Below, one piece after another: positions 10,375-39,479 of a stretch of 64,000 nucleotides of DNA (within the stretch, counting starts at the first letter, position 1; each line of letters opens with the position of its first letter). This stretch comes from Acidobacteriota bacterium. Lineage in GTDB: Bacteria; Acidobacteriota; JAAYUB01. The position numbers and the translations under genes were made by a program. The DNA is taken from the NCBI GenBank assembly GCA_016935015.1, contig JAFGRT010000145.1:1713-65712 (forward strand). Reading direction: 5' to 3'. The notes below the pieces were generated by a model. That model searched no databases. It was not told where the DNA came from and saw nothing but the letters and a program-made list of their open reading frames with translations.

Positions 10375-10443
10375 GCCTTACCCTCCCGGGGAGTATTGGG
10401 GAAAGACCATCACTGGGTGTGGAAATTTGCTCAGAACAGGGCC

Positions 10444-10962
10444 TCAGTTCCAATCATCATAATCGTAGTCATCGGACTCGTAATCCAGATATTCATCATC
10501 ATCGGCATCGAAGTCATCGTCATCTTCGAGCCAGTCTTCGTCTTCGAATTCGTCGTCTTCCTCGCTCTCTTCGTCCTCAACCTCATCATCTTCTTCCTCT
10601 TCCTCTTCCCCTTCCACTTCCCCTTCTTCTTCCCCTTCTTCTTCCCCTTCCTCGTCCTCGATTTCCTCGTCGTCCTCAAATTCCAGTTCGTCCTCGAAAT
10701 CCTCATCCTCGAACTCGTCCTCGTCTTCCCACTCCTCCAGATCCTCCTCGTCCAGATCCTCTTCGTCCAGGAGGTCGTCCTCCAGGTCATCGTCCCAATC
10801 GGTGTCCTCTTCCTCCCAGTCGTCCTCTATTTCTTCCCAGTCCTCCAGATCATCCATGGCATCGTCCAACTCATCCATTTCATCCGGAACCTCCGGCAAA
10901 TTTTCAAATTCGTCATCATCCGACAGTATGATCACAGGAGGTTGTTCAGGTCGTTCGTTCAT
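10444..10962 (-). CDS. Hyper-acidic low-complexity protein, 172 aa
   Basis: ATG 10962 after GAAGGA. Roughly two-thirds D/E, one Arg, no Lys; codons vary, so it is not a simple microsatellite. Has a candidate promoter of its own. Confidence 0.7.
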   Translation of the reverse strand: MNERPEQPPVIILSDDDEFENLPEVPDEMDELDDAMDDLEDWEEIEDDWEEEDTDWDDDLEDDLLDEEDLDEEDLEEWEDEDEFEDEDFEDELEFEDDEEIEDEEGEEEGEEEGEVEGEEEEEEDDEVEDEESEEDDEFEDEDWLEDDDDFDADDDEYLDYESDDYDYDDWN

Positions 10963-11018
10963 GGTTCCTTCTGATTTCACCTGCATAAGACACCCTTTAG
11001 TCACAAATTTTTAATCCA

Positions 11019-11047
11019 ATTGTTGGGCAAAGAAAAGCAAATGTCAA
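11019..11047 (-). promoter_or_regulatory. Putative sigma70 promoter for the acidic protein
   Basis: TTGACA-N17-AACAAT on the minus strand; the -35 box overlaps the upstream stop codon. Confidence 0.45.
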
Positions 11048-19635: not shown

Positions 19636-21576
19636 ATGATGTACTGGATATGGCGGGGCATAGTGGCGACAGGGTTCGGTATCCTCCTGGCCGGAGCGGC
19701 CATGGCCGGCCCGGCGGGCGACGGGCACCAACCAGTCGGCAGCCGGCTCATCGAACCGAATCGGGACTACGGCGAGGAGCCCGGCTCCATTATCAAGCGT
19801 TTCGTCCAGCCGCTGACCGAAGAGGAGAAGCGCAGCCACCGCTCCATTCTCATCACCGACGATGACCACGCCAATTCCATCGCCCCGGTGCTGACCCCCA
19901 AAACACCGGTTTACCTGCATTTTTCGCGGCAATCCGGCCCCAATCCGGAGGAGCTGAATTTCATCCTCGAAAGCGGCCGCATTTTTCTCAATTACGCTTC
20001 CCCTTACAAGCAGGAGGACGCACCGACCCTGCGCATCCGGCCCATTGACGGCGATTGCGAGATCCCCTTCCTGATTCAGGTGGAACTCGAGCCCCTGCGG
20101 GTGCCACACGAGAGCGGCACCTTGGAAATCCTGCTCCACCTGCCGCTGATCTTCAATCCGGAGGTCACCGTCAACTCCGTCACCCTGGCGCAGAAAAATC
20201 AGGATTACCGGCTGTCGGTGGGGGCGAGCCTGCACCGGCACAAAATCGTGATTCCCATCAACAAGCGGATACTTGAACCCTTTGTGCACGAAAACAACGG
20301 CCGCCTCCAGATTCTGGTAGACGGGATCATTTCCCTCTCAAAGTACCGCCCCATCGAACCGCATCGCTTCAGCAGCGTCGCCAAGGAAGATCTGGATCCC
20401 CGCCTGGCCGGGATTTCCATGATCATCGCCGGCCGCGATTACTGGGGGGAACACGAAAAGCGGCAGATCATGGATCTGGCGCGACAGATCGAGGAACGGA
20501 CCAATAAAGATTACGAGCGGATCCTCCTGGCCAACCGCTATACCAGCCGGAGCATCCGCTACTTCCGTAACAGCATGCGCCGCACGGCCATCCAGGTGCT
20601 GGCCGAAGGGATCGGCGACTGCGATGATTACACCCGGGTGATGATGGCTCTCCTGCGGGCCATGGGCATCCCCTGCAGCCTGTCGGTGGGGCATTTGTAC
20701 GATTTCAACAGCATCGGCGCCCACGCGTGGGTGGATGTGGGCCTGCCCACCCGGGACGGAGAACTGCGTTGGTTCATCTGCGATCCCACCCTGGCCAGCG
20801 TCACCGATCAGAAGGACTACTTTGTCCAATTCAACAACCGGATCTATCTGTACCCCGTGAAAATCGAGGTGGCCGCCCGGAATCTGCCGGTGGACGAACG
20901 GGCGGATATCCTGCTGAACTGGCGCGGCAAGTCGCCGGACAACCTCACGTCCCCCCAGGCCTATCACTCTACCATCAACTCGTTCCGTGAAAACCTGGAA
21001 AGATCTCTGCAGGAAAAAATGGACATTCTCACACGCCGCAACCTGCTGCCGGAACGTGAATTTCTCTTCGACCTGGGGAGCAGCTATTTTATCGTCGACC
21101 GCGACGTGGCACCGGAAAAGAGCCGCCTGCAGATCAAACTGGACAACTCCGAGCAGTTCATGGTGGAATTGACGGTGACGGATGAAGAATACAGCCTGGA
21201 AGGGGCGGCGGAGCAGGAGATGGCCGACCGGATCCGGCGGTCCTACCGGCGCATGAAACAGCTGTTCTTTCCGGATTTCGAGGCCCGCTATTGCTTGGAA
21301 CTTTCCTTCGAACGCGACAAGTACACCGATCAGTTGCAGCGGGTCAACCTGCAGGTGTTCCGCTATCTGGTGGAGCATCATTTCGATAAGATCATGGACG
21401 CCCTGGAGAAAGAGGGGCTGATTCGGCCGGAGGAATCGGCCCGCTTTCGGGAAATATACCGGATCTGCTCGGGCAAGAACATGTACTACATCCTGGAAAT
21501 GGCTCATCGCCAGGACATTCTGCAGCGGCCCATCTATCCCACGGAAGAGCAGCTGGTTGCCAACCAGGGCGACTGA
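19636..21576 (+). CDS. Secreted transglutaminase-like domain protein
   Basis: Signal peptide; Cys-His-Asp triad motifs GDCDDY...LLRAMGIP, HAWV, DPT. Confidence 0.8.
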   Translation: MMYWIWRGIVATGFGILLAGAAMAGPAGDGHQPVGSRLIEPNRDYGEEPGSIIKRFVQPLTEEEKRSHRSILITDDDHANSIAPVLTPKTPVYLHFSRQSGPNPEELNFILESGRIFLNYASPYKQEDAPTLRIRPIDGDCEIPFLIQVELEPLRVPHESGTLEILLHLPLIFNPEVTVNSVTLAQKNQDYRLSVGASLHRHKIVIPINKRILEPFVHENNGRLQILVDGIISLSKYRPIEPHRFSSVAKEDLDPRLAGISMIIAGRDYWGEHEKRQIMDLARQIEERTNKDYERILLANRYTSRSIRYFRNSMRRTAIQVLAEGIGDCDDYTRVMMALLRAMGIPCSLSVGHLYDFNSIGAHAWVDVGLPTRDGELRWFICDPTLASVTDQKDYFVQFNNRIYLYPVKIEVAARNLPVDERADILLNWRGKSPDNLTSPQAYHSTINSFRENLERSLQEKMDILTRRNLLPEREFLFDLGSSYFIVDRDVAPEKSRLQIKLDNSEQFMVELTVTDEEYSLEGAAEQEMADRIRRSYRRMKQLFFPDFEARYCLELSFERDKYTDQLQRVNLQVFRYLVEHHFDKIMDALEKEGLIRPEESARFREIYRICSGKNMYYILEMAHRQDILQRPIYPTEEQLVANQGD

Positions 21577-25410: not shown

Positions 25411-25947
25411 CTACGGTCCGCCGGCGGAATCGTCGCCCGGGGCGGCTGCGGGATGGCGCGGAGCCAGATAGAGCGGGATGCTGAACAGCAGAAAGAACAG
25501 GTTTTCCAGGATCTTGGGCAGGCCCACCCGCTGGGCGGTGAGGGGACCGAAACAGCCGCAGTTGGCGTCGATGCCGCGGACCATGGTCACGGCCAGCAGC
25601 CCGATGAAAAATACCAGCAGCCCGCTCAAGATGAACAGGGCGCCGCGCTGGAAATGCCGGTAAAAGAACCAGCCGAGGCGGCCGAGCCGGCTCGTCCGCT
25701 GCGGGGCACGGTCACCGACATGCCACAGGCCGAGGATAAGCAGGAGACCGGCCAGCAGCTCGATCCAGGGCAGCGTTACGGCCACGGCGTTGATGAACGG
25801 CACGGGGAGGGGCATTTTGTAGTTGGCGATCTCCCGGGCGAACGTGGCCGCGTCGGGGATCTTGAACACGGCGGCGGCCACGAAGAGCCCGCCCAGCACC
25901 AACCGGCAGGTAAATATTATTGCTTGTATGACGGTCCGATGTGACAT
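25411..25947 (-). CDS. MauE/DoxX-family membrane protein
   Basis: RLVLGGLFVAAAVFKI, LPWIELLAGLLL, RGIDANCGCFG. Confidence 0.88.
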   Translation of the reverse strand: MSHRTVIQAIIFTCRLVLGGLFVAAAVFKIPDAATFAREIANYKMPLPVPFINAVAVTLPWIELLAGLLLILGLWHVGDRAPQRTSRLGRLGWFFYRHFQRGALFILSGLLVFFIGLLAVTMVRGIDANCGCFGPLTAQRVGLPKILENLFFLLFSIPLYLAPRHPAAAPGDDSAGGP

Positions 25948-25951
25948 GACA

Positions 25952-26425
25952 TCAATCCCATTCGATGGGGTAGCCGGCGCCCATCCATTCGTTCCAGCCA
26001 CCATAAAACACCCGGACGTCCCGATAGCCGGCCTCGGCCAGTTCCCGCGCCACGGTGAGAGATGAAACACAGTCCTGGCCGTCACAGTAAACGACCACCG
26101 GCACGGCGGTGGGGATTATGTGGCGGAATTCCGGCAGCTGCGCCGCCACGGTATGTTCGGGCATGTTGAACGCCCCTTCGATGCGCCCCTCGCTGAAGAG
26201 GTCCGGCGGGCGGGCGTCCACGAAGACCACCGCACCCGAGGCAAACTCGCTGTAGGCCTGATCCAGCGAAATGGTGGGCAAGTTCGCCTGGGCCGCCTCC
26301 TCTTTCACGTTCGTTACCGGATTGTGGCCGGTGATAGAGATGCCCGAGGGACTGAACTGGTTGAACAGGAAACCGAACATCCATCCCAGCAGAACAATCA
26401 GTGCCGTCTGGCGCAGGTACATCAT
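25952..26425 (-). CDS. Membrane-anchored rhodanese-like domain protein
   Basis: N-terminal TM helix, FVDARP, GRIEGA, VVYCDGQDC, GGWNEW...GYP; 4 bp from the DoxX gene. Confidence 0.9.
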   Translation of the reverse strand: MMYLRQTALIVLLGWMFGFLFNQFSPSGISITGHNPVTNVKEEAAQANLPTISLDQAYSEFASGAVVFVDARPPDLFSEGRIEGAFNMPEHTVAAQLPEFRHIIPTAVPVVVYCDGQDCVSSLTVARELAEAGYRDVRVFYGGWNEWMGAGYPIEWD

Positions 26426-26493: not shown

Positions 26494-27933
26494 TCAGAAG
26501 CGGGAACGGGCCAGGGTGTCAAGGATCTTGTAGTGGCGTTCCAGCACCATTTCGCGGAGTTCCTTGAATTTTTCGTAAGGGATGATGTTGTCGAAGGAGA
26601 TGGCCGAACCGCCCTTGCCGTTGTAGACCACCTTGCCCCGCGTTTCGGTCTCGAAGCCGCTTTCCCGATCGAAAAGAGCGATGCGGGAGTTAGTGAAGAT
26701 GGGCACGATGCGGTGGGTTTTGACGTAAGTCCCGCCGACGCTGATGGGTTTGGCCCGGGTGTGTTCCACATCGTCGTCGAATTCGGCGCGGCATTCGAGT
26801 CCCATGGGCAGACGGATGAAGCGGCGCCGGTTCTCGCGTACCTTGGACAGGATGAATTCCATGTTCAACACATTCTCGGGCGTCAGCTCGTTGATGTACT
26901 CGCAACCGGGGAAGAGCAGCGACGAGTCCTTCATCACCTGGAAGAACTTGCCGTCGGCGAAAATGATGAACGGCGCCCCGCTGGTGGGCTGGTGCAGCTT
27001 GTGTTCGACAATGGTATGCAGCAGCTGATGATCGGCGAAATCCACGTGCAGCACGAAGGAGGCGAAATTGGATTTTTCCCGCGCCAGGTATTTCTGCAGC
27101 AGATTGATGTCCTTGATCTGGATCACCCGGTAATGCCGCATGGCCTTGCCCAGCCGCTGCGACACCACGCTGTCGCGCGAAAAGATGATCCATAGCAATT
27201 CCCCGTCGTCCCGCGGACCGTTCATGTGACGGGGCATCTCCAGGCGTTCCAGCTTCTCCTGCAGGGAGGCGATAAAGCGGTCGAATATGGACTTTACGCC
27301 GCGGTACCACTCTGTCTCCAGCGGCCGGCCGTCCTGGATGAGGGACCAGCTGATCTTGCCGGTCAGGTCCTCGTTGTAACGGGTATGATGGTTTTCCCAG
27401 TGAAAGCTCAATCCCTGGCGGATGGCCTCCTGAAAGGCCAGTTGCAGGAAAAGATCGCGGAAGGAATCGTTGGGGAAACGGATAATGATGTCTTCCTCGA
27501 AGGTCATCCGGTTCTCGGCCTTGTGCAGGATGCATTCCCGGTAATCGCCGATGTGCACGAAAAAGGACTGGAGCGTATAGAGCAGGCGCTGAAACACGGG
27601 CCGGGCCTTGGCATAGTAGCTGTTCATGTCGAGCCCCAGCATGGAGAGCTTCTTGTAGCGGATGTAGTTGATCTTGCGCGGTTCGATGTCGCAGTTCAGC
27701 TCCTTGAGGGCGGCCAGGCAGCGGATGGCCATGGTGGCATTGCCAAGGGCCGTCTCATCGTAGAGATACTCCAGCAGACGCGGCAGTTTGAGGATGTCCT
27801 CCACCAGGGTGATATCCACATCGTAGCCGGACCGCTTCAGCTTCAGCAGCTGGCCGATGCCGGTAAACACCTTGCCGTTGAGCACGGACAGGCGGGTCTT
27901 CTCGATTTCGGTCATGAGGAAGGCGATATCCAT
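26494..27933 (-). CDS. Hypothetical protein with C-terminal PilZ domain
   Basis: ENRRRFIR (RxxxR) and ISVGG motifs near the C-terminus; N-terminal region unrecognised. Confidence 0.7.
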   Translation of the reverse strand: MDIAFLMTEIEKTRLSVLNGKVFTGIGQLLKLKRSGYDVDITLVEDILKLPRLLEYLYDETALGNATMAIRCLAALKELNCDIEPRKINYIRYKKLSMLGLDMNSYYAKARPVFQRLLYTLQSFFVHIGDYRECILHKAENRMTFEEDIIIRFPNDSFRDLFLQLAFQEAIRQGLSFHWENHHTRYNEDLTGKISWSLIQDGRPLETEWYRGVKSIFDRFIASLQEKLERLEMPRHMNGPRDDGELLWIIFSRDSVVSQRLGKAMRHYRVIQIKDINLLQKYLAREKSNFASFVLHVDFADHQLLHTIVEHKLHQPTSGAPFIIFADGKFFQVMKDSSLLFPGCEYINELTPENVLNMEFILSKVRENRRRFIRLPMGLECRAEFDDDVEHTRAKPISVGGTYVKTHRIVPIFTNSRIALFDRESGFETETRGKVVYNGKGGSAISFDNIIPYEKFKELREMVLERHYKILDTLARSRF

Positions 27934-28178: not shown

Positions 28179-28252
28179 TGGGAGGTCGTCTAATGGTAGG
28201 ACTGCGGACTCTGGATCCGCCTATCGGGGTTCGAATCCCTGCCTCCCAGCCA
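28179..28252 (+). tRNA. tRNA-Gln (anticodon CTG)
   Basis: TGGGAGG/CCTCCCA acceptor stem, GCGGA-CTCTGGA-TCCGC anticodon arm, GGTTCGAATCC T-arm, encoded CCA. Confidence 0.97.
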
Positions 28253-28265: not shown

Positions 28266-28295
28266 AAGCCGCCGGCGACGGCGGCTTTTCTTTTT
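28266..28295 (+). terminator. Rho-independent terminator after the tRNA
   Basis: AAGCCGCCG-GCGA-CGGCGGCTT followed by TTCTTTTT. Confidence 0.85.
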
Positions 28296-28417: not shown

Positions 28418-28963
28418 TCAGCCACGAAAACTCCGGCGCCAGTCGGCCAGGCGGCAGATGACTGCCCGCCAGAGCACGGACCTCAGCCAGCCCCGCAGGA
28501 CCACCGCCTGATGCACCACCCGCCGCCAGGGTGACAGGCAATCCATGGTGCGAGTGTAGCCGCCCGCCTTGCCCCGCTCGATCAGGCCAACCCGCCCCAG
28601 CACGGATGCCGCCGCCACGGGCAGATCCGGCGTCAGCAATGCGTCGCCCCGGGTAAGATAGGCCCGGTCGTCGCGCCGGCGGATGCGGACCAGACGGTGC
28701 AGTTTCAGATGGCCGGTCTCATCCCGGATCAGAAGGATGTCGCCCCGCCGCACCGCCGCGGCCGCCACCGGCTCGATGGTCACCCGGTCGCCCGAGCGGA
28801 CGGCCGGGCGCATGCTGTTGCCCGTCACCCGGACCCGCACCCGGACGCCCCGGTCCAGGATGTCAGGCAGAAGGTCCGCGCCCGCCGCACCGGCGCCGTT
28901 CAGTCGCAGCGCGTCGTCTCCGACCACATCATGACCGGTTCTTGAGATAGGCATCGAGGACAT
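28418..28963 (-). CDS. S24/S26-family peptidase without a membrane anchor (RiPP-cluster peptidase)
   Basis: VTGNSMRP (Ser), GDI, LHRL (His), TRGD...D; overlaps the kinase stop. Confidence 0.85.
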   Translation of the reverse strand: MSSMPISRTGHDVVGDDALRLNGAGAAGADLLPDILDRGVRVRVRVTGNSMRPAVRSGDRVTIEPVAAAAVRRGDILLIRDETGHLKLHRLVRIRRRDDRAYLTRGDALLTPDLPVAAASVLGRVGLIERGKAGGYTRTMDCLSPWRRVVHQAVVLRGWLRSVLWRAVICRLADWRRSFRG

Positions 28964-29828
28964 GGGCGATTTCCCGTGTGGGTCGGAACGAAATCCGGGC
29001 CACCGGCACGCCGGTTACCAGGTGGTCACAAAACGACAACACTGGTCCCAGCAACTCTTCATCATACCAGGGAACGGTCGCTGTCGGCAACAGCAGCGGC
29101 AACGCCGCCGGCGGATTCATGGCCCGGATCTCATCCATCGGTGCCTGCTGCAAGAACAGCACGCCGCCGAGGGGCACGCCGCGGTTGACAGCCACCCCCG
29201 CCTCACCCGGCCAGGGGGTGCCGTACGCCCGGAGTTCGCCGTTCAATTTTCTGACGATCACCCGGTCGTCGCTCAGCTGGAGCCAGTCGGCGCGGGCGGC
29301 CAGCTGGCGCGCCAGGGTGCTCTTGCCGGCCCCGGAGCGACCGGGGAAAATGTACCCGCGGCCGGCGATGACAACCCCCGCCGCATGGACGATGAGCCCC
29401 TCCCGGCCGGCGAGATAGTGCATCAACAGCAGCTGGTCCAGGGGATAGCGCACCGGATAGTAGGGCTGGACCGACACCGGCACCGCCAGGGGGCGGCAGC
29501 CGATCTCCACCCGGGTGAACCCGGCGTTCAGCCGGGCTGTCCACAACGGCTCGGCGAAGGCAGGGGGCTGCAGGACCAGCAGGCGGTCGCTCCCGTCCCG
29601 CCACATGGACCAGGACTGTTGGCTGTCGAAAATCCTTTGATAACGGGCGATTTCCTTTCCCGGAACCGGTTGGGAAGTGACATCGACCTCGATATGAGCA
29701 CTCGCGGCAGGCACCGTCGGAACACGAAAGCGATCATAGACGGGATCGGAATCTGACACGGGCATCCCACCACGGACAATGATGGTGAGGATCACATCGG
29801 CGATAGAGATAGTGATGGAATCAGCCAT
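28929..29828 (-). CDS. HprK-related P-loop kinase (RiPP-cluster type)
   Basis: HAAGV, GRSGAGKST (Walker A), LSDD, YGTPWPG. Confidence 0.85.
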   Translation of the reverse strand: MADSITISIADVILTIIVRGGMPVSDSDPVYDRFRVPTVPAASAHIEVDVTSQPVPGKEIARYQRIFDSQQSWSMWRDGSDRLLVLQPPAFAEPLWTARLNAGFTRVEIGCRPLAVPVSVQPYYPVRYPLDQLLLMHYLAGREGLIVHAAGVVIAGRGYIFPGRSGAGKSTLARQLAARADWLQLSDDRVIVRKLNGELRAYGTPWPGEAGVAVNRGVPLGGVLFLQQAPMDEIRAMNPPAALPLLLPTATVPWYDEELLGPVLSFCDHLVTGVPVARISFRPTREIAHVLDAYLKNRS

Positions 29829-29851
29829 TCGTGCAGGACACACTCCGGCCT

Positions 29852-30022
29852 TCAGGAACCCAGCGACGAACAACCGGTGGCGTTGCAGGGCGAGCTTAAC
29901 GGCGCCGAATCGCCCGCGTTTTTGCAGCCCGTGCCGAGAATTTCGTCAGCGACCAGTTCGATCTTGATCAGCTGTGGTTTTTCATACGGTAATTTGGTTT
30001 CCGCTGGACTTTCATTCTTCAT
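29852..30022 (-). CDS. Putative RiPP precursor peptide, 56 aa
   Basis: MKNESPAETKLPYEKPQLIKIELVADEILGTGCKNAGDSAPLSSPCNATGCSSLGS. YxxPxL leader motif, three Cys in a G/S-rich core. ATG 30022 with AAGGA 10 nt upstream, overlapping the rSAM stop. Confidence 0.85.
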   Translation of the reverse strand: MKNESPAETKLPYEKPQLIKIELVADEILGTGCKNAGDSAPLSSPCNATGCSSLGS

Positions 30023-31121
30023 CACAACCATATCCTTCACAATAGGTTTCGAGGCTTTCCCGGCGATGATGTCCCACCGCGCACAGAAACTCGGATGGCT
30101 GGTGTTCATCGCCGGTCTCCAAGGTAAAAAAGGCCGGGCAATAGCCGCACAGGAACCAGGCCTCACAATCGGTGCAAGGGGAATCCGGCCGCAGGGTCCG
30201 GGTTCGGATGTCGGCCAGGGTGCCGGTCCAACCGTCGAAAAACGAAACGGTCCGCAAGTCGGCCGTCAGGGCGTCCATCAGCAGGCACGGCTGCAGCCGG
30301 CCGGTAGCGGTGACATGAAACGTGGTCATGCCGGCGCCGCAGGGGTAAAGACGCGACGTCCGCGGTACCGCCTGCATCCGCTTGCGAAAATCCAGCCACC
30401 TCTCCCGCCGCTCGGGGGAGGCCAGCTCGCGAGCCACGGCTTCGGCCGGCGGCACGCGCAGCTGCACCGGTGACCGGTCGCCGTTGAAGCGTGGAAACAG
30501 GGCGGCGTCGAAGCGAAAGGGCACGTGCAGGTCGGCGGCCAGCTGCTCCAGGGCGGTGAGTTCATGGGCGTTTTCCGTCATCAGGATGGTTTTGAGTTTC
30601 ACCCGCAGCTGACGATCCATGAGCCGCCGCACATTGCGCAGTGTGCGGTCATGCGAGCCGGCCACTCCGGTGATCCGCTCATGAGTGGCGGCGGTGGCGC
30701 CGTAAAGGGTGATCTCCACGGCCAGGGGTGGAAACTCCGTCAGCAGGTCCAAATGATCCACCGGCAGATGACAACCGCTGCTGAACACGGTGACGATGAG
30801 ACCCGCACTCCGCGCCTGTCGGTAAATGGCATCGAAATCGGGGTGCACCAGCGGCTCGCCGCCCGTCAGCAACAAATACAGACAACCGGCCTGCCGGATC
30901 TCGTCGATGAGTTCCAGCCAGCGCCGGGTGGGCAGTTCCCCCGCCGATGGCGTCGCGGAACGGCCAGGCTCGGCCGCGTAGCAGTGCAGACAGCGCAGGG
31001 GGCAGCGGCGCGTCAGTTCCAGGCTGCCGGAAACAGGCACGCGCTGGCGGAACACCTTTTCGCTGAGGTTTTTCCAAAAATACAGCGCGGTGGGTGGATT
31101 TGTCCGGAGGCAGTCCGTCAC
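30012..31121 (-). CDS. Radical SAM/SPASM-domain peptide maturase
   Basis: CPLRCLHC; TGGEP; SPASM CGAG...QPC and CTDCEAWFLCGYC...C; GTGA overlap with the PqqD gene. Confidence 0.93.
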   Translation of the reverse strand: MTDCLRTNPPTALYFWKNLSEKVFRQRVPVSGSLELTRRCPLRCLHCYAAEPGRSATPSAGELPTRRWLELIDEIRQAGCLYLLLTGGEPLVHPDFDAIYRQARSAGLIVTVFSSGCHLPVDHLDLLTEFPPLAVEITLYGATAATHERITGVAGSHDRTLRNVRRLMDRQLRVKLKTILMTENAHELTALEQLAADLHVPFRFDAALFPRFNGDRSPVQLRVPPAEAVARELASPERRERWLDFRKRMQAVPRTSRLYPCGAGMTTFHVTATGRLQPCLLMDALTADLRTVSFFDGWTGTLADIRTRTLRPDSPCTDCEAWFLCGYCPAFFTLETGDEHQPSEFLCAVGHHRRESLETYCEGYGCDEE

Positions 31122-31438
31122 GGGGATACCTCCTCCAGCAATTCCGCCGCCCGCAATTGGTGGATGAACTCGCCGAGGTCGGCCTGGGCCTGGGCCGGCG
31201 ACACGTCGAAACGGTGCAGCAGCGCGGCGTGCAGCTGGGCCAGATCACGGCGGCCGTCCAGCTGCTCCCAGATGAACCGCCCCACCTCGTTCACGGCAAA
31301 AATCTGCTGCAGGTCGGCCAGGCGTCCCTTGACGGGCACCAGCAGAAACTCCCCGGCGACTTCCCGGGTGACCACATGGTCGATCTGGCGAAACACCATG
31401 TGGGAATGCTCCAGGTAGTGGTTTGGCTGTTCGGTCAT
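31118..31438 (-). CDS. PqqD-family RiPP recognition element (RRE)
   Basis: REVAGEFLLVP, NEVGRFIWEQLDG, FDV...AQADLGEFIHQL. Confidence 0.92.
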   Translation of the reverse strand: MTEQPNHYLEHSHMVFRQIDHVVTREVAGEFLLVPVKGRLADLQQIFAVNEVGRFIWEQLDGRRDLAQLHAALLHRFDVSPAQAQADLGEFIHQLRAAELLEEVSP

Positions 31439-31445
31439 ACTTGGG

Positions 31446-34400
31446 CTACTGAATCATCAGCGCCGGATCTCCCAAAAGGTTGTAAATGAGCATCATCTCC
31501 CGCGTACCGTCGGCGGCGGCGAATGCCGCCAGCATCCGCTGCAGGGCATCGCCCAGCACCGGCACATGTTCCTGATAGATGGCCCGAATCAGCTCCCGAT
31601 TCATGGCCAGGGCGTCGGGATGCCGGGACAAACCGCTGGGCGACCAGACGGCCACCGCCCCGCCCTGGGGCTGAAGCACCAGAACTTCGCCCAGGGTCCG
31701 GTAACCGGGGATGGCGAACTGGCCGAGGACACAGGTGAAAGCGGCCAGCACCGGCGGGCGGTCGTCATTGCCGAGCTGCGCCACGTCCACCGAGCGCAGC
31801 AGGCCTTCCTGAGCCAGTCGGTCCACGGCGGCGTGGCCCAGGTAGTTCACGAAACCGACGCCGGCGCGCAGGTTGTGGGCGGTCAGCTGCCGGGCCGTGA
31901 CGGCATCCACGTCCTCCAGGGACACATGGGCGATCCGGTGGCCGGCGGGAATGTCATCGGCCAGTGCGTCCGTATCCGCCGGGAAATTGCCGCCGGCATC
32001 CGGATTGTCGGAGAGGAGCAGCACACTGTTCCGCCAGGCATTCTGACCCGCTTCGAAACCGGTCACCTTGGCCAGGTAGTCGGACAGCTCGGCTTCCGTG
32101 ACGGCCGGGATCCGGCCGACGATCATTTCCGGCCGGCCGTCATTGCCGGCCACATCGGCCAGCAGATGATCGGCCGGAAAGAGCCCGTCGGCCGTGCTAA
32201 CCAGGAGGGGCGGCACCAGGTTGTCACCCCGTCCCTGACAATCCTGGTAATCGAAGGTACCCTTCCCCAACAGCAGCACGTAACGCGGCGGCGTCGCCCA
32301 CTCCTGCCAGGCAAAGCCCAGGAACTCCCGCACCGCGTGGGGCGTGGCCAGGCCATGGCCGAATTCGTCCTGAATCTGTTCCAGCTCCACCACGGCCGTC
32401 GTCAGGCCCGTGAAGCGCCGGTATTCGGCGAACGCGGCGGCACCGTCGGCCAGGGCGGCCGGGGTGATCACCAGGTATTCGGCGGGCGCCATTTGGCGAA
32501 GCGCGCCGGCAGCCGGGCGGCCCGCCAGAGCCGGCGGCCGCCGGAAACCGGCCGCCGAGACGGCCAGATACTGGTTCTCGAGAGAGGCGGGTGTAAAACT
32601 GACGCGATGCCCGTCGGCCGCGGCGGTGATAGTGACGCCCCGCAGCCGTCGCGGCGCCGCCGGGCGCGTGACGTCCAGAACGAGAATGGCCGGGTCGGTG
32701 AAACCGCCGACGGTGCAGTGGCCGGCGCCGTGACGCCGCACCAGCATCTCGTCCATCGTGGTCTGTCCGACACGCGTGCAGGTCACATCAAAGGAATCGA
32801 CGTAGAAGACGCTATGGGGCGCGCAGGTATCCAGCAGTCCGCGAACTTCGATTTCATTGGTGCCGTGTTGCAGACAGCTCGAGGCGAACCTCAGCGACAG
32901 CCGGTACGATTCCGTGCCTTGCCAGAAGCCCTCACCCACGACTTCGCCGTTTACCGCCACGCGGACATGGTGTTCACCGGCGCCGCAGTTCGTATCGGAT
33001 ACGCCCTTCAGCTGGACATCCAGAGTCGCCCAGCCGAAGGGGACGATCTCCGGCAGCTCCACGGCGAATGACTTCTTCCCATAGCGCGGGTCGCCGGCCA
33101 CGATGTAGTCCCAGTGCCAGAAGTCGGCCCGGGGATCCCGATAGAAGGCCGGCACCGGAAAGCGGTCTTCCTCAAAATGGAATGTCGCCGTCAGCACGCT
33201 GGCCGCGTTCCCGGCGGCGGGCGCGGCCTCCTCCACGTCCTCCATGGCCAGACCCGTGCCGGGACTGAGCCAGTAGACGTTGTGGGGGGCATAGGGATCG
33301 GCGGCTTCCTGGCTGTAGAAGAGCAGGCCCGCCGGTTCGGCGCTGGGCAGGTACGGTACCGGTTGCCCCTGGCACGTCAGTGCGAATTCCAGATTCTCTA
33401 TCCGGTCCATGACATCGGTCGCCGAAAGGCCCAACCGCTCGGCCATCTCGCCGGTGGTGATGAAACAAAGCCCGGCCGCACCGGTGCTGATCTTCAGCCG
33501 TTCGGCGGGAAGGGCCTTGTCCGTTGACGGACCCGGGCGAGCATTCGGCGCCATCCGACTCGTCGCCGCCACCGCCGGCACGGCGGCCGGTCGGCGCTGG
33601 TAGCCGTAGGCCAGCAGTTCGTCCGCGGCGGCGCCGGGAGCGAATCCCGCCCGCTCCGCCGCGGGGATCCGGATCCGGAACGGGCCATGGATGCGGCGCC
33701 GGCCGTGCGGCTCCATTTCCACCAGCCGGTAGACGTAATCCTGATCCGGTTCGGCCGATTCGTCCACCCAGGCGTAGTCCCCGCCATGGCCGGTCACCAG
33801 CAGGCCGGGAATCAGAGTGTCATTCACCTGTTCCCAGGCACCGTTGACCGGGTCCAGGCGTTGGACCTCGAAGCCGATGGTGCCCACCTCCGAGGCGGTA
33901 GTCCAGCGCACCACGGCCTGGCCGTGCCGAAGGGAGGCGTCAAAGGCCGACACCAGCGCCAGGGTGGGCAGGTCGTCGCCGGCGTTGAGCTGCAGGGGGC
34001 AGAGGGGCCCGAAGGTGAACGTGGCCCGGGCCTGGCTGGTGTTGCCGGTCTCGTCGAGAAAGGTGGCCCGGGTGCCGTTGCTGCCGGAGCCGGTGACGTC
34101 GACGGTCGCCGCGTCGCCGCTGGTGATGGAAACATCATCAATGTACCAGCCGGCCCACTGCCAGCTTTCATCGGTGGTGATGATCCAGCGCCATTGCACG
34201 CTGGCCTGATTGTCGGCATAAGCCGACGCGTCATGCGTGTACTGACTCCAGGCGTTATCAGCCCGCGTCGAATCCGGATTGCGATAAATTGTCGTCCACG
34301 TACCGCTCCCGACGCGCCGCTGGAAGCGGGCGAGGTCATATGTTCGGCGTTCAATTTCCAGCCATTCCCAGTAGGAAATCTGCACCCCGGTCACTCCGGT

Positions 34401-36026
34401 AAAGTCGTAAACAGGAGAATACAGGATCACGCCCGTGTCGATATCGTTCCCGTACAAATCATCGAGATCCGTGCCCCAGCAATCGGTGCCGGTGGCGGTG
34501 TGGTCGTCGTCGGGGCCGCCGTTGCCGAAGCAGTTGGAGGAACAGTTGCCGCCGCTGAGGGGCGAGCGGGTGGCGGGATCGCCCAGTTCCCAGTTGATGG
34601 CCGGCGAGCCGTCGGCGGAGCCGGTGGTCCAGCCGGATGCGCCCGATTCGAAATCGTAGAAATAGCTGATCCCGGGAGGGGTGACATCCACATTGTAGGC
34701 CAGGGTGGGCGTGGTGCCCGCCGCCGCCGTGCCGGGGTTCCAGGTGATGTCGCCCGTCCCGCCCACGCTGGGCTGGCTGACGATGCTCCCCTGGGTCACC
34801 GACGCACTGCCGGCGTAGACGGCGCCCGAACCGGGGACGTTGGCCGTCACCAGGTTGGATGCGGAAAAGGTGATGGCCTGGGCCGAGGGATTGAACACCG
34901 ACACCAGCACCCGCACCCGGGTGGTGCTGCCGCCCACGGGCGGATTGGGGCCGGACACGTGGCTCACCGTCTGGGTGATAAACGGCTTGACGGGCACCCC
35001 GGCGGCATCGGTTTGCAAGTAGATGCGGAACGTATCGGGTTGCGGCTGGCTGCTGGGCGGCGGCGCGGCGCCGCTGGCGTCGGCGGCCAGGTAACTGCCG
35101 ATGTAGATCGTGCCCGAGTTGGGGTTGTTGAGGGTATACGTCAGGTTCCAGAGGCCGTAATCGGCGGCCCATTCGGTGGTGGTCCAGCCGGTGTAGGTGA
35201 CGTTCTGCCAGACGGTGGCGCCGCTGACGGCGTTGGTCTGGGAGAAGCTGCCGGTGCGGCTGGTCATGGTGAAGGAACCGGCGCTGTCGCCGTCGAACTC
35301 GTTGAGATCCACCTCGCAACCCGAGACCACATAGGGATAGAGGAGGTAGGTGATGGTCGTGGTGCCGCCGGTCACGCCCGTCGCGATGTACGATTCGGCA
35401 TAGATGTTCAGCTCAGTGCCGCCGCCGGTGGGATCGCCGTCGTTGGCGCGGATGCCGTAGGCGTTGACGTCGTCGCCGGTGGTCACCGCCGACGACATAT
35501 CCACCTGCAGGCGCCAGTGCCCGGCGGTGGGAGTAGACACGGTGGCCAGATTCAGCCAGGCGTTGTCCGAACCGGCCGGGCCGGTGCTGTTGCCGGTGAT
35601 GACGGCCACCTGGGTGCCGGCGGGGTTGAAGAGGGTATAGGTCGCCGCCGAATCGTAGGTACCGACAGCGACATCATGGTTGGCGCCGAATCCGACGTCG
35701 GCGTCGAAGATGTCCACCTGGAGCTGGGTTAAACCGCCCACCACCTCGATGTAGTAATTGACCGGCGCGTTCAGGCCCGGCGCCGTGGCGCAGCTGACGA
35801 AGTCGCCGTTGGCCAGGGCATAGGCCGAACCATGCTGCATGAACTGGCGGTTGGTGGGCGTGGCCGCGCCGAACACCCACGGCCCGATGCCGATCACGAG
35901 CAGAGCCGCCACCGCGACCGGCCAAAGCCGAACGGCACGGCGCCCGGGCGCCGCCACGGACGAATGAGAGCCGGTATGATGGAAATCCACGGCGAAAGGC
36001 ACAGCCCCGGAGCGAATGGGTCGCAT
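31446..36026 (-). CDS. Giant secreted multidomain protein with C-terminal gingipain (C25) cysteine peptidase domain
   Basis: RBS AGGAGG, signal peptide, beta-rich T/G/S domains (DUF11-like; MAM/immune-inhibitor-like ...WYIDDV), C25 motifs YLVIT, YVLLLG, VGRIP, NYLGH (His), FTC (Cys), YNLLGDP. Confidence 0.88.
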   Translation of the reverse strand: MRPIRSGAVPFAVDFHHTGSHSSVAAPGRRAVRLWPVAVAALLVIGIGPWVFGAATPTNRQFMQHGSAYALANGDFVSCATAPGLNAPVNYYIEVVGGLTQLQVDIFDADVGFGANHDVAVGTYDSAATYTLFNPAGTQVAVITGNSTGPAGSDNAWLNLATVSTPTAGHWRLQVDMSSAVTTGDDVNAYGIRANDGDPTGGGTELNIYAESYIATGVTGGTTTITYLLYPYVVSGCEVDLNEFDGDSAGSFTMTSRTGSFSQTNAVSGATVWQNVTYTGWTTTEWAADYGLWNLTYTLNNPNSGTIYIGSYLAADASGAAPPPSSQPQPDTFRIYLQTDAAGVPVKPFITQTVSHVSGPNPPVGGSTTRVRVLVSVFNPSAQAITFSASNLVTANVPGSGAVYAGSASVTQGSIVSQPSVGGTGDITWNPGTAAAGTTPTLAYNVDVTPPGISYFYDFESGASGWTTGSADGSPAINWELGDPATRSPLSGGNCSSNCFGNGGPDDDHTATGTDCWGTDLDDLYGNDIDTGVILYSPVYDFTGVTGVQISYWEWLEIERRTYDLARFQRRVGSGTWTTIYRNPDSTRADNAWSQYTHDASAYADNQASVQWRWIITTDESWQWAGWYIDDVSITSGDAATVDVTGSGSNGTRATFLDETGNTSQARATFTFGPLCPLQLNAGDDLPTLALVSAFDASLRHGQAVVRWTTASEVGTIGFEVQRLDPVNGAWEQVNDTLIPGLLVTGHGGDYAWVDESAEPDQDYVYRLVEMEPHGRRRIHGPFRIRIPAAERAGFAPGAAADELLAYGYQRRPAAVPAVAATSRMAPNARPGPSTDKALPAERLKISTGAAGLCFITTGEMAERLGLSATDVMDRIENLEFALTCQGQPVPYLPSAEPAGLLFYSQEAADPYAPHNVYWLSPGTGLAMEDVEEAAPAAGNAASVLTATFHFEEDRFPVPAFYRDPRADFWHWDYIVAGDPRYGKKSFAVELPEIVPFGWATLDVQLKGVSDTNCGAGEHHVRVAVNGEVVGEGFWQGTESYRLSLRFASSCLQHGTNEIEVRGLLDTCAPHSVFYVDSFDVTCTRVGQTTMDEMLVRRHGAGHCTVGGFTDPAILVLDVTRPAAPRRLRGVTITAAADGHRVSFTPASLENQYLAVSAAGFRRPPALAGRPAAGALRQMAPAEYLVITPAALADGAAAFAEYRRFTGLTTAVVELEQIQDEFGHGLATPHAVREFLGFAWQEWATPPRYVLLLGKGTFDYQDCQGRGDNLVPPLLVSTADGLFPADHLLADVAGNDGRPEMIVGRIPAVTEAELSDYLAKVTGFEAGQNAWRNSVLLLSDNPDAGGNFPADTDALADDIPAGHRIAHVSLEDVDAVTARQLTAHNLRAGVGFVNYLGHAAVDRLAQEGLLRSVDVAQLGNDDRPPVLAAFTCVLGQFAIPGYRTLGEVLVLQPQGGAVAVWSPSGLSRHPDALAMNRELIRAIYQEHVPVLGDALQRMLAAFAAADGTREMMLIYNLLGDPALMIQ

Positions 36027-36236: not shown

Positions 36237-39200
36237 CTATTTCAGCGCCGACAGCACTTCCTTCACCGCCGCCTCCAGCTGCTGGTCGCGGCCGGCCACG
36301 ATGACGCCCGGCGCGTTGGCCACCCGGATATCCGGCTCCAGCTGCTGGTTTTCCAGGTAGCGGCCATGTTCGTCCAGCACCCCCACCTGGGGAATGCCGA
36401 ACACCAGCGACGGATCGATCTGCCGCTCCCACCACACGGCCGTGCCCGTTCCCGGCACCGGCATGCCGACGGTCTGGCCCAGGTTCATCTCCTTGAAGCC
36501 GAAAGGAAAAATATGGGCGTCGGAGTAGTTCCCCTCGCCCATGACCACTACCACCGGGCGGGTCCACTTTTCCTGGGGCTCCACGCCGATCTTCTTGCCC
36601 CGTGGCACGAAGGTCAGGTAGACGTCGCCGCCCAGCAGGGTGCACAGGTCATCGTGCAGCCAGCCGCCGCCGTTGAAGCGGGTGTCCACCACCAGGGCCC
36701 GGCGGTCGGCGTTGCGGCCGAAGATCTCGGAGAACGTGTCCTTGAACGACTGCGGATTCATGCCGCGCACGTGGACATAGCCGATCCGGCCGGCGGAAAG
36801 CTGATCCACCATGCGCCAGCAGTTTTCCGTCCAGCGCTTGTAGAGCAACTGGCCCGCTTCACGGCCCGCCAGCGGCTTGAAGACCACCTCCCGGGTTTGG
36901 GCCGGATCGTTGGCCGCCCCGAAAACCGCCACCATTTTCTGGCCGGCCATGTGGTTCAGGAGCGGGTGATGATTGCCCCCGCCGCCCACGGGCTCGCCGT
37001 TGAGACTCAGCAGGATCTCACCCGGCCGGACCGCCGTTTCACTGGTGCTGAAAGGCCCCTCGGCCAGCACTTCCTTCACTTTCAGTCCGTCCCCCTCGTA
37101 GGCGGGATCGAAGAAGAGGCCCAGCTCGGCCGTGTCGTCGGCCGCCTCGTCCGGCTCCGGCCGGTAGCGGCAGCCGGTGTGGGAGCCGTTGAGCTCGCCC
37201 AGCATCTCGCTGAGCATTTCGGCGAAATCGGCGTTGGTGGTGATGTGGGGCAGGAAGCGGGCGTATTCGGCCTTCATGGTTGGCCAATCCACGCCGTGCA
37301 GATCCTCGACGTAAAACTTTTTGAGGACCTGCCGCCAGGCATGTTCGAAGATATAGGCCCTTTCCTGGGCCGGCCGCAGCGCCATGTCGGCCTGGACGGC
37401 CACCGGTTTGGCCTTGCCCGACTTGGGGTCTACGTTGCGGATCTGGTTGTTGACGCAGACGAAGACGCTCTTGCCGTCCCGGCTGAAGGTCAGGGTGCCG
37501 GGCCGGCGGGCGTTGAGCTCCACCAGGATCTTGGTGGACTTCTTGCGGGTTTCGGTCACCCAGAGGTCATAGCTGCCCCGCGACCGGGCGAAATAGACCA
37601 ACGTTTCGCCGTCGGGCGAAAGGTCGGAGACCATGCCCTGGGACGAGTTGATGGTCAGGCGGCGGATGCGGTCCCGGATACCGTCAAAATCGATCCGGAC
37701 GGGTTCGACGTCCGGTTTCTTTTCCTTGTCCGCCTTTTCCGGCCGGTCACCCGTCGCTTCCTTCGCCGCGTCCCGGTCCTTTTTCTTCTCGGGCTTTTCG
37801 TCGGCGAACTCCGCTTCGGGCTTGGTGTAGAGGTCATGATCGGCCTGGCTCAGATACACAGCGTAGACATCCTCCTGGGCGCCGTGGCCGCCGTGGGAAC
37901 GCAGGCCCTCCATATCCGAGCTGAAGAGCAGTTGCTTGCCGTCGCGGCTCCAGTAGGGCCGCCGGGAACTGTAGCCGTTGTTGGTGATGTTGTGGATTTC
38001 ACCCGACTCCACGTTCACGACACCGATGTCGGTGGTCCAGCGCTGGTGGGACATGTAGGCCACGGCCAGCCAGCGGCTGTCGGGCGACCAGGCATAGCTG
38101 ACATCACCGTCGCTGTAGGAGAAGAGTTTTTCGTCGGGCACCAGGATCCGCGATTCGCCCGATTCCAGGTCCAGCACCTTCAGGATGGTGCGCTCTTCGA
38201 GGTACGCCATTTTCTTGCCGTCGGGCGACACCAGGGGCTGGAAGGTTTCGGCCGGAATGGCCAGCACGGCCTCCTCCCGCAGCAGGGTCGAATTGTAGAA
38301 ATGCTTCTCCTCCTCCCGCTGCAAGATGCACTTATAGATATTCCACGAGCTGTCGCGCTCACCGGCGTAATAGAGGGTCCGGCCGTCGGGCGACCAGCCG
38401 ACGCTACGCTCCTGGACCGGGGTATCGGTAATCCGCCGCGTGTTGGGGAACTCCACCGCCGTGACGAACACCTCGCCGCGGTGGACGAAGGCGATCTCCT
38501 TGCCGTCGGGCGAGACGGCCATGTCGTCTGAGGCCGCCTTCACCACGTCGCGAATCACGGCGTTCATATCGAAATCGTTGCGGATCTCCACAGCGATCTT
38601 TCGCGGCGAACCTTCGTCGACGGCGGTCAGCCAGAGTTCGCCGCGGAAACTGTAGGCGATGGTCCGGCCGTCGGCCGATGCGGTGGCGAACCGGACCGGG
38701 TGCGTCTCGTGACGGGTCACCTGCCGCGGGACACCCTCGGCCATCCGCCACACGTTGAACGAACCGCTCTCCTCCGACAGGTAGAACAGCGTGCCGCCGC
38801 CCCAGAAGGGATCGCGATCCTCGCCGTTGAAGGTGGTGAGCTGGCTGAACGTGCCCGACGGCACATCATAGGCCCAGACATCCCGGGTGACGGAGGACGT
38901 ATGGTGCTTGCGCCAATAATCCTCATAGCCCTTGACGTCCATGTAGGCGATGGTCCGGCCGTCGGCCGACCAGGCCGCCCGGGCCACGGCGTGTTCGAGC
39001 ACCATCTCCGGCATGTGGGCGGCCCGGTCCACTTTATAGAGCTGGGTCATCAGGCCGGAAGGGAAGCCCCGGTAATCGGCCCGTGGGAACCGGTAACTGG
39101 TAAAGAGCACACACTGGCCGTCGGGGGTCCAGCCGGTGACGATGTCATCGGCCGAATGGAACGTCAGGCGCGTGGGGGTACCCCCTTCCACCGGCACGAC

Positions 39201-39479
39201 AAAGACATCGCTATTGCCCAACCGGTCGGTCGAGAAGGCGATGGACCGCCCGTCGGGTGACCAGGCGGGCCAGAAATCCCGGGCGGGATGGCTGGTCAGC
39301 TGGCGGGCGGTGCCGCCCGTCGTCGCGACGATAAACAGGTTCCCCTGGTACTCGAACACCACCTGGGTCCCGTCCGGCGACAACGCCGGATAACGGAGCC
39401 AGAGCGGCTCGTCGGCGGCACCGGCCAGCGCGCAGAGGCACCCGCCGATAATCAGGGTCAGCATCACGTATTTTTTCAT
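36237..39479 (-). CDS. Tricorn-like S41 family protease
   Basis: Signal peptide, PD40/beta-propeller repeats (WSPDG), GELNGSH, PDZ, DTRFNGGG, NYSDA, VPGTGT. Confidence 0.93.
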   Translation of the reverse strand: MKKYVMLTLIIGGCLCALAGAADEPLWLRYPALSPDGTQVVFEYQGNLFIVATTGGTARQLTSHPARDFWPAWSPDGRSIAFSTDRLGNSDVFVVPVEGGTPTRLTFHSADDIVTGWTPDGQCVLFTSYRFPRADYRGFPSGLMTQLYKVDRAAHMPEMVLEHAVARAAWSADGRTIAYMDVKGYEDYWRKHHTSSVTRDVWAYDVPSGTFSQLTTFNGEDRDPFWGGGTLFYLSEESGSFNVWRMAEGVPRQVTRHETHPVRFATASADGRTIAYSFRGELWLTAVDEGSPRKIAVEIRNDFDMNAVIRDVVKAASDDMAVSPDGKEIAFVHRGEVFVTAVEFPNTRRITDTPVQERSVGWSPDGRTLYYAGERDSSWNIYKCILQREEEKHFYNSTLLREEAVLAIPAETFQPLVSPDGKKMAYLEERTILKVLDLESGESRILVPDEKLFSYSDGDVSYAWSPDSRWLAVAYMSHQRWTTDIGVVNVESGEIHNITNNGYSSRRPYWSRDGKQLLFSSDMEGLRSHGGHGAQEDVYAVYLSQADHDLYTKPEAEFADEKPEKKKDRDAAKEATGDRPEKADKEKKPDVEPVRIDFDGIRDRIRRLTINSSQGMVSDLSPDGETLVYFARSRGSYDLWVTETRKKSTKILVELNARRPGTLTFSRDGKSVFVCVNNQIRNVDPKSGKAKPVAVQADMALRPAQERAYIFEHAWRQVLKKFYVEDLHGVDWPTMKAEYARFLPHITTNADFAEMLSEMLGELNGSHTGCRYRPEPDEAADDTAELGLFFDPAYEGDGLKVKEVLAEGPFSTSETAVRPGEILLSLNGEPVGGGGNHHPLLNHMAGQKMVAVFGAANDPAQTREVVFKPLAGREAGQLLYKRWTENCWRMVDQLSAGRIGYVHVRGMNPQSFKDTFSEIFGRNADRRALVVDTRFNGGGWLHDDLCTLLGGDVYLTFVPRGKKIGVEPQEKWTRPVVVVMGEGNYSDAHIFPFGFKEMNLGQTVGMPVPGTGTAVWWERQIDPSLVFGIPQVGVLDEHGRYLENQQLEPDIRVANAPGVIVAGRDQQLEAAVKEVLSALK

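Follow-up and report, generated by a model that had tools for sequence, protein, structure and literature searches.

What does an operon make when the gene for a giant cysteine peptidase stands beside those for a modified peptide? The operon in question occupies positions 28418-36026 of a 64,000-nucleotide stretch of DNA from an Acidobacteriota bacterium (GenBank assembly GCA_016935015.1, contig JAFGRT010000145.1), which was analyzed at its full length and is called the window here. The original prediction, made from the letters of the window, had described an operon resembling those for peptides that are ribosomally synthesized and then post-translationally modified (RiPPs), with genes for a C25-family peptidase, a RiPP recognition element (RRE), a radical S-adenosylmethionine (SAM) enzyme of the SPASM type, a Cys-rich peptide, an HprK-like kinase and a soluble S26 peptidase. 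We found that this is a real, widely conserved six-gene operon, and that the earlier interpretation is supported in part. On balance, and with modest confidence, we read it as an RRE-dependent RiPP pathway that would combine radical SAM/SPASM cross-linking with the kinase and leader-peptidase logic of linear polyphosphorylated peptide (LPP) and paeninodin-type clusters, and that would be coupled to a surface C25 peptidase.

Operon layout, recurrence and precursor

The six genes are co-oriented on the minus strand, as read from their coordinates. In the order of transcription, they encode the giant C25-family cysteine peptidase (31446..36026, 1526 aa), the discrete PqqD-family RRE (31118..31438, 106 aa), the radical SAM/SPASM peptide maturase (30012..31121, 369 aa), the precursor peptide (29852..30022, 56 aa), an HprK-like P-loop kinase-like protein that resembles ScmC (28929..29828, 299 aa from its ATG) and a soluble archaeal/SipW-type S24/S26 serine peptidase (28418..28963, 181 aa). 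A gap of 7 bp separates the C25 and RRE genes, the RRE and radical SAM genes share the letters GTGA (a 4-bp overlap), and the radical SAM and peptide genes overlap by 11 bp. The peptide gene is followed after 23 bp by the ATG of the HprK-like gene, which overlaps the S24/S26 gene by 35 bp. The longest open reading frame (ORF) of the HprK-like gene begins at a TTG at 29873, a start that would overlap the peptide gene. All coordinates and junctions matched the coupled arrangement described in the original prediction.

A whole-genome search of 40 relatives yielded radical SAM homologues (38-49% identity) from the same family's genomes and from some others in the same phylum, and the DNA around these homologues held the same neighbor genes. 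With the single radical SAM protein as the query, no confirmed relative was obtained among contigs of metagenome-assembled genomes (MAGs; genome_contigs), and a profile search with the radical SAM alignment A1 gave 80 named MAG loci. Together with the window and 14 loci from relatives, 95 loci were examined; Hidden Markov Models (HMMs) were built from the first locus set and then scanned over all of them. We defined the cassette as a radical SAM/SPASM gene, a PqqD-type RRE gene and an HprK-like kinase gene, so that all 48 cassette loci necessarily have the RRE.

The scan detected the cassette in 48 of the 95 loci, with an S24/S26 peptidase in 38 of these, a precursor in 34 and a C25 gene in 22; these counts overstate independence because the loci are related to each other (L016 and L017 are near-duplicates, L013 and L014 close kin). 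The titles of the cassette loci name Acidobacteriota, Nitrospirota, Aminicenantes, Myxococcota, Binatia and Verrucomicrobiota, and further Anaerolineales, Desulfobacterota, Elusimicrobia, Planctomycetota and Clostridia. The remaining 47 loci mostly hold distant radical SAM genes with partner genes in almost none, and a few are short contigs carrying part of the gene set. The distant radical SAM loci were rejected as a sample of the SynChlorMet cassette, as one of them (L101) lies in a heme operon and encodes the heme b synthase AhbD; about 40 such loci were therefore used only as an outgroup without cassette genes. The same set recurs elsewhere, more than chance would explain.

The precursor carries Y13-E-K-P16-Q-L in its leader, Cys33-Lys34 20 residues after the Tyr, further Cys residues at 46 and 51, and a C-terminal Gly-Ser. 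Searches against Pfam and NCBIfam matched it to no family. Homologous precursors were recovered as 40 peptides from 35 of the 95 loci, with two to four different precursors per locus in three loci (L043, L047 and L049). Their common features are a basic N-terminus, Y/W-x-x-P-x-(L/V/I) and then an L..(E/D)E..L stretch. The Y/WxxP motif is present in all 40 (39 by regular expression; L041 has YAKP, and the expression matched a later KxxP). A Cys lies 20-21 residues past the Tyr/Trp, followed by Lys in nearly all, and two additional Cys occur in most. The C-terminal residue is Ser in 38 of the 40, preceded by Gly in 25. In the alignment of 32 sequences (A3), P16, C33 and C46 never vary and at least 90% of the rows keep E27, K34 and C51; the spacing of the three conserved Cys differs between precursors, as does the rest of the core. 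A motif search of the 14 cassette loci without an HMM match was noisy and gave two plausible candidates that are not counted here, L075 8896-9072 and L022 11534-11740, the latter truncated at the contig end.

Judged by this conservation, the 56-aa peptide is a real, conserved RiPP precursor, as had been claimed. Two of its features have precedents. According to Popov et al. 2026 (PMC13381572), who described LPP clusters from Bacillota, Y/WxxP is the motif recognized by discrete RREs of lasso, pyrroloquinoline quinone (PQQ) and LPP pathways. A conserved C-terminal Ser is given as a hallmark of precursors phosphorylated by HprK-like kinases in the account of paeninodin-type lasso clusters (PMC9266682).

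Proposed recognition, modification and leader removal

The RRE protein matched PF05402 (PqqD) at 66.1 bits, with the ScmD, PqqD and lasso PqqD models all under their cut-offs, and its homologues gave an alignment of 34 sequences (A2). The radical SAM protein matched PF04055 at 73.6 bits, and Pfam reported no SPASM domain in it. Across 22 aligned homologues, the CX3CX2C cysteines (C40, C44 and C47) and seven SPASM cysteines (C261, C279, C316, C319, C325, C328 and C347) are invariant in every sequence. The best solved relatives of the radical SAM profile were the thioether synthase SkfB (6efn, 1.9e-28), which is the closest in sequence, PqqE (6c8v) and CteB (5wgg), the last matching over most of the protein length. 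No NCBIfam equivalog model reached its cut-off for this protein; the mycofactocin maturase model, the longest among the matches listed, covered residues 28-329 at 81.3 bits against a cut-off of 265. None of the six operon proteins reached the cut-off of a curated equivalog model. With its invariant cysteines, the radical SAM/SPASM enzyme looks active.

The kinase-like protein scored 24.5 bits with Hpr_kinase_C, against a Pfam cut-off of 33.3, and its NCBIfam matches, all below cut-off, were ScmC (36.7 bits), HprK_rel_B (36.2) and HprK_rel_A (30.3). H148, K169 and D/E188 are conserved in 32 of 32 sequences and D187 in 31. We utilized an AlphaFold2 model (predicted local distance difference test, pLDDT, of 91.3) for a Foldseek search, which weakly matched PEPCK and HprK/P (1kkl with TMt 0.52; E about 1e-5, template modeling (TM) scores 0.3-0.5). 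In the lasso kinases, a His-Lys-Asp-Asp motif is essential (PMC9266682), and we infer that H148, K169, D187 and D/E188 occupy the same positions. The precedent given in the original prediction for such tailoring is correct, as PadeK is described as phosphorylating the C-terminal Ser of its paeninodin-type precursor (PMC9266682).

For the S24/S26 protein, the matches were at below-cut-off level: TIGR02228, the archaeal-type signal peptidase I model and its best match in NCBIfam, gave 43.1 bits against 51.85, and PF00717 (Peptidase_S24) gave 24.6 bits. In the alignment of 24 sequences (A4), H89 and D107 are kept in all and S50 in 23; by their conserved residues, both this protein and the kinase-like protein look active. 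A Kyte-Doolittle scan of the S26 protein reached a maximum of 1.27 and found no membrane-like segment, in agreement with the soluble enzyme predicted originally. The S26 gene can be given a role because the LPP study shows a SipW-like, RRE-dependent leader peptidase beside an HprK-like kinase. There, LppS removes the leader only with the RRE present, and the Ser/His/Asp arrangement is needed (PMC13381572).

We predicted the structure of a complex of RRE, precursor and S26 peptidase, with an own alignment for each chain and S26 as the scored partner. The complex had an ipSAE of 0.62 in three of three runs, compared with 0.01 at best among three controls; among 80 solved complexes in the calibration of the tool, 58 attained the ipSAE mark, as did 2 of 110 mismatched pairs, counts that are rough here since three chains with own alignments differ from the calibration, and a pass means likeness to such complexes and not binding. 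At least 47% of contacts were common to the runs, and the partner pLDDT was at least 75. At the predicted interface, precursor residues 21-28 meet S26 residue 50 and residues 86-88, next to the catalytic Ser and His, and the RRE contacts the S26 peptidase. The LPP leader is cut after the 16th residue, counting from the Tyr of the leader motif (PMC13381572). By analogy, the same count would end at Ile28, five residues before Cys33, which fits the leader-peptidase model. These predictions suggest that the S26 protein is likely the leader peptidase of the pathway.

In three other loci, the S26 peptidase has a C-terminal extension (L016 4612-5658, L017 11678-12724 and L047 4764-5696). The extension in L016 matches GNAT acetyltransferase models, L017 is nearly identical to L016, and the GNAT assignment for L047 was made by eye.

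The C25 protein and the proposed pathway

The C25 protein matched PF01364 (Peptidase_C25) at 238.7 bits against a gathering score of 23 (1.5e-70). It is built from a signal-anchor helix (residues 37-55, the one membrane-like segment in a hydropathy scan), a variable N-terminal half, a PorU-like middle and a catalytic domain at 1184-1524. Its score with the PorU model NF033707 was 188.1 bits, below the cut-off of 420. Alignment to PorU (6za2) showed that the His (YLGH) and the Cys (FTC) are kept; both occur without exception in the 19 C25 domains linked to cassettes, and the domain looks active.

C25 genes lie within about 10 kb of the cassette in the 22 loci that have one; the gene order varies, and C25 may stand upstream, downstream or on the opposite strand. 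In three loci (L031, L032 and L039), a single ORF of 2466-2897 aa begins with the S26 domain and closes with the C25 domain, and in two more (L036 and L042) the S26 ORF continues up to the contig end, over 628 and 1374 aa. In each of the five fusions, the S26 domain precedes a basic stretch; a single hydrophobic helix that ends in an AxA-like sequence comes next, and then a long further part. Because a single hydrophobic helix follows the S26 domain, S26 in these fusions would lie in the cytoplasm and the remainder outside. Among the 48 cassette loci, 17 have both S26 and C25, 21 have S26 without C25, 5 have C25 without a detected S26 and 5 have neither.

Two further C25 genes of the same genome have related neighbors. 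At L107 (6121-11664), a C25 gene whose product has a propeptide and a dockerin is followed on the same strand by S24/S26-like and PqqD genes, beside which stands an ABC-2 transporter pair; this locus showed no radical SAM gene, no kinase gene and no evident precursor. At L106 (8334-13685), a PqqD-radical SAM/SPASM fusion (473 aa) is followed by a 488-aa ORF of no assigned family, with a weak P-loop match, and next by a C25 gene for a protein with a gingipain-type propeptide, inside which the contig ends. Recurrence, the S26 fusions, the complementary presence of the genes and these two C25-RRE loci argue for a real link between C25 and the cassette, and they strengthen the suggestion, already made in the original prediction, of a product that partners the C25 protein. 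The suggestions made there of a cofactor or a signal found neither support nor contradiction.

It is nevertheless conceivable that the working unit is a five-gene cassette (RRE, radical SAM enzyme, precursor, kinase and S26) and that C25 is an unrelated common neighbor. Such a unit would account for the 26 of 48 cassette loci without C25 in the DNA examined, and the genome of 4.75 Mb has 10 PF01364 matches, so that adjacency alone is weak evidence and some of it may be chance; the tie between peptide and C25 is one of gene context. A chance neighbor is harder to reconcile with the proximity of C25 in 22 of 48 loci from several phyla despite rearranged order, with the S26-C25 fusions in three loci and the S26-giant fusions to the contig end in two more, with the gap of only 7 bp between the C25 and RRE genes in the window, and with two other C25 genes of this genome adjoining PqqD, S26 or radical SAM genes. 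In addition, precursors end in Gly-Ser in 19 of 22 cases at loci with C25 or the giant fusions versus 0 of 9 at loci with NTP_transf_5 or ABC genes and no C25, a comparison confounded by relatedness. We consider the five-gene unit unlikely.

The reading that we favor, with C25 as part of the pathway, can be laid out in six steps. The discrete PqqD-type RRE would bind the Y-x-x-P-x-L leader of the precursor, as the motif and its precedent suggest. The radical SAM/SPASM enzyme would cross-link the core, most likely by thioethers from the three conserved Cys. The HprK-like kinase would phosphorylate a Ser; by the example of paeninodin-type clusters, the best candidate is the near-invariant Ser at the C-terminus. 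The soluble SipW-type S26 peptidase would remove the leader from the RRE-bound precursor in the manner of LppS, cutting probably a few residues before Cys33; the conserved catalytic residues and the predicted complex point to this step. The product would exit via an exporter encoded outside the operon. Finally, the membrane-anchored C25 protein may act on the product outside the cell, trimming or transferring it, a step to which gene linkage and fusions point and which is the least certain of the six. Both the thioether and the phospho-Ser chemistry are inferred. With a C-terminal Ser in 38 of 40 precursors and the conserved His-Lys-Asp-Asp/Glu set of the kinase, the crosslinked, phosphorylated peptide of the original prediction stays the best reading of the product.

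After export of the peptide, the C25 protein could trim it or, like PorU, transfer it; alternatively, the peptide could control the C25 protein. In the last case, the modified peptide would inhibit, activate or chaperone C25, or otherwise partner the giant protein, and would not be its substrate, a possibility that the original prediction had raised. Linkage and fusions are equally compatible with such control and with a substrate role, and the operon has no exporter or immunity gene. The precursor, however, has no signal peptide, the operon has no exporter and the C25 domain is predicted to lie outside, an objection that applies equally to the pathway laid out above, and the 26 of 48 cassettes without C25 would have to serve another use. 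Control of C25 by the peptide seems to us an improbable arrangement, to about the same degree as the five-gene unit. A more specific proposal, which we hold to be distinctly unlikely, is that C25 is a PorU-like transpeptidase dedicated to the RiPP and attaches the exported peptide, once cross-linked, phosphorylated and freed of its leader in the cytoplasm, covalently to a cell-surface or exopolysaccharide acceptor. If so, the pathway would yield a modified peptide anchored at the surface, not an antibiotic released in free form, and the S26-C25 fusions would be one membrane-spanning processing machine working on both membrane sides.

Production of a small peptide-derived cofactor like PQQ or mycofactocin, with the radical SAM enzyme acting at the C-terminal Gly-Ser and a peptidase freeing the fragment, is very unlikely: the PqqD plus PqqE-like architecture, the mycofactocin maturase match at residues 28-329 (81.3 bits, cut-off 265; the longest among the NCBIfam matches listed), the conserved precursor C-terminus and the absence of an exporter from the operon would suit it, but the three conserved Cys at variable spacing in a variable core look more like a cross-linked peptide, the two to four different precursors at L043, L047 and L049 are typical of peptide products, 6 of 48 related loci have MsbA-like exporters, and all cofactor models score far under cut-off.

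Several observations weigh against the six-step pathway. The thioether chemistry is a guess from Cys content and distant relatives, and no sactipeptide or ranthipeptide equivalog model came near its cut-off. Hpr_kinase_C and all HprK-type NCBIfam models stayed below cut-off for the kinase-like protein, the Foldseek TM-scores of 0.3-0.5 are low, and LppK, as described in the LPP study, targets core Ser3 and not a C-terminal Ser, so the phosphosite proposed here is a candidate only. S26 was undetected in 10 of 48 cassette loci, and the complex that supports its role departs from the calibrated setting as stated above. The model requires export, and the operon has no exporter. C25 is missing in 26 of the 48 cassette loci, the 10 PF01364 matches of the genome bear on those adjacencies that exist, and the relatedness of the loci bears on every count.

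Known systems and flanking genes

LPP, as presented in the text of the LPP study (PMC13381572), is the closest characterized system to the operon. Both have a discrete RRE with an HprK-like kinase (here PF05402 at 66.1 bits, and a PEPCK/HprK fold with His, Lys and the two Asp positions kept) and a peptidase with a Ser/His/Asp set, which in LPP is of the SipW or archaeal signal-peptidase-like type with no apparent secretory role and here is a putative homologue below the TIGR02228 cut-off. Both have precursors with a Y/WxxPx[L/V/I] leader motif. Beyond that shared motif the leaders differ: LPP has YxxPxVLxHQxIxFETxxS, whereas the precursors here continue with ...L..(E/D)E.(V)L..CK. LppK, the LPP kinase, polyphosphorylates core Ser3. 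LPP clusters as described there have no radical SAM enzyme and no C25 protein, both of which the operon has; the words "radical", "SPASM" and "C25" are absent from the main text of that paper. LPP cores are not Cys-rich, in contrast to the core here. The authors of that paper describe the clusters as restricted to Bacillota (PMC13381572).

The LPP core set further includes an NTP transferase as well as an MsbA-like exporter, neither of which is in the operon of the window; the only PF14907 match of the genome lies on another contig than the operon. Among the 48 cassette loci, an NTP_transf_5 gene occurs in 13 and an MsbA-like exporter in 6, a further likeness to LPP. The earlier statement that there is no transporter and no lasso cyclase thus holds for the operon of the window and fails, as to transporters, for the family. 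Loci with NTP_transf_5 or the exporter tend toward WxxP leaders, several precursors and a residue other than Gly before the final Ser. The cassette family seems to fall into two subtypes, one of them resembling LPP plus a radical SAM enzyme, because leader type, precursor number and C-terminal residue differ between the C25 loci and the NTP_transf_5/exporter loci. Polysaccharide export genes stand beside some cassette loci (GNVR kinase 9, Wzy_C 6, Poly_export 5). A cluster of "sensor" proteins near 11 of the 48 cassettes was considered as a link and set aside, as it consists of histidine or Ser/Thr kinases grouped by generic domains.

The SynChlorMet cassette, which by its TIGRFAMs description contains two radical SAM genes, had been named as the pattern that the operon recalls. 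That description reportedly says that a precursor had yet to be identified, and no paper on SynChlorMet turned up in the literature searched. The operon shares with it (TIGR04248-TIGR04251: ScmD, ScmC, ScmE and ScmF) a PqqD-like, an HprK-like and a radical SAM/SPASM protein. ScmD (TIGR04248) is the best NCBIfam match of the RRE, at 34.7 bits against a cut-off of 100, and ScmC (TIGR04249) that of the kinase-like protein, at 36.7 against 125; the radical SAM protein scored 76.6 bits with ScmE and 63.9 with ScmF, against 400. Unlike SynChlorMet, the operon has a single radical SAM gene and a defined precursor, S26 peptidase and C25 protein. SynChlorMet was therefore a fair lead, and membership was rejected, with all scores far under cut-off and one radical SAM gene.

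Paeninodin-type clusters, as described in PMC9266682 and PMC13381572, resemble the operon in the His-Lys-Asp-Asp kinase, the conserved C-terminal Ser, the discrete RRE and the Y/WxxP leader. They differ in that their lasso cyclase and transglutaminase-type B2 peptidase are replaced here by a radical SAM/SPASM enzyme and a serine peptidase; in Pfam and NCBIfam searches, no asparagine-synthetase-like lasso cyclase and no transglutaminase-type B2 peptidase was found among the six operon proteins. The maturases of sactipeptides and ranthipeptides (SkfB, CteB and AlbA) share the combination of a radical SAM/SPASM enzyme, an RRE partner and a Cys-bearing core, and the operon has their architecture, with the invariant CX3CX2C, seven SPASM Cys and three conserved core Cys. 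The radical SAM protein scored 63.7 bits with the SkfB model (cut-off 300), 78.2 with StsB (625) and 51.6 with AlbA (850), and in the operon the RRE is a separate protein and kinase, S26 and C25 are additional. PorU, the type IX secretion sortase (6za2), shares the C25 domain with its His/Cys pair and the PorU-like region before it; the C25 protein differs in its N-terminal membrane anchor, its setting in a RiPP operon and its score of 188 against 420 bits.

Relative to these systems, the radical SAM/SPASM step, the near-invariant C-terminal Ser and the C25 link, with its S26-C25 fusions and two further C25-RRE loci, are new. In the literature searched, which left most subscription journals and the LPP supplements outside, no paper described a radical SAM/SPASM enzyme together with a kinase, a SipW-like peptidase and C25, and a giant surface C25 cysteine peptidase is unreported as a RiPP-pathway component in the papers searched. 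If our reading holds, the cassette represents a large uncharacterized RiPP class, mostly from uncultured Acidobacteriota, Nitrospirota and other environmental phyla. A hint of its size comes from the kinase-like profile (32 members), which at E <= 1e-30 matched 5130 clusters (50% identity) through their representatives, a figure for the kinase-like family as such, beside radical SAM genes or not. The operon would bridge radical SAM/SPASM cross-linking and the Bacillota LPP logic of kinase and SipW-like leader peptidase, which have so far been studied separately, and would supply a defined precursor family for a SynChlorMet-like system. It would also add a new partner to RiPP pathways, a giant surface C25 cysteine peptidase that is sometimes fused to the leader peptidase.

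At its upstream end, the operon has a promoter-like site 5' of the C25 gene (36099..36128, minus strand; TTTACG-18-TACAAT), a consensus match at 9 of 12 positions, and a strong Shine-Dalgarno sequence (AGGAGGA) precedes the C25 ATG. A tricorn-type protease gene with PD40 repeats, Tricorn_C1 and Peptidase_S41 (36237-39479, minus strand) ends 210 bp upstream of the C25 gene; the tricorn profile also matched an ORF in two other cassette loci (L022 and L032). At the other end, a convergent tRNA-Gln gene (CTG; 28179-28252, plus strand) closes the operon unit. A GC-rich hairpin with a T run lies 3' of it on the tRNA's own strand (28266-28287), and a terminator scan gave 7 sites compared with a mean of 5.3 in shuffled sequence, which is no excess.

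Two genes beyond the tRNA gene were rejected as parts of the operon. The first, a 479-aa ORF (26494-27933, minus strand), has no counterpart in related loci, matches no Pfam family and lies in a stretch of lower G+C (0.575); the second, encoding a MauE/DoxX membrane protein (25411-26085), recurs in no other locus. The tRNA gene intervenes in both cases. A 646-aa protein with a Transglut_core domain (19636-21576, plus strand) is encoded 7 kb from the operon on the opposite strand, and was rejected as a lasso B2 peptidase since it is too large and too distant; nor did a lasso cyclase turn up. Farther away in the window, positions 2489-12714 hold a run of signaling genes for a MASE1/PAS histidine kinase, a sigma-54 activator, a GAF-HD protein and an FHA-GAF-SpoIIE phosphatase, and within this run lies a SAM hydroxide adenosyltransferase gene (9568-10374).

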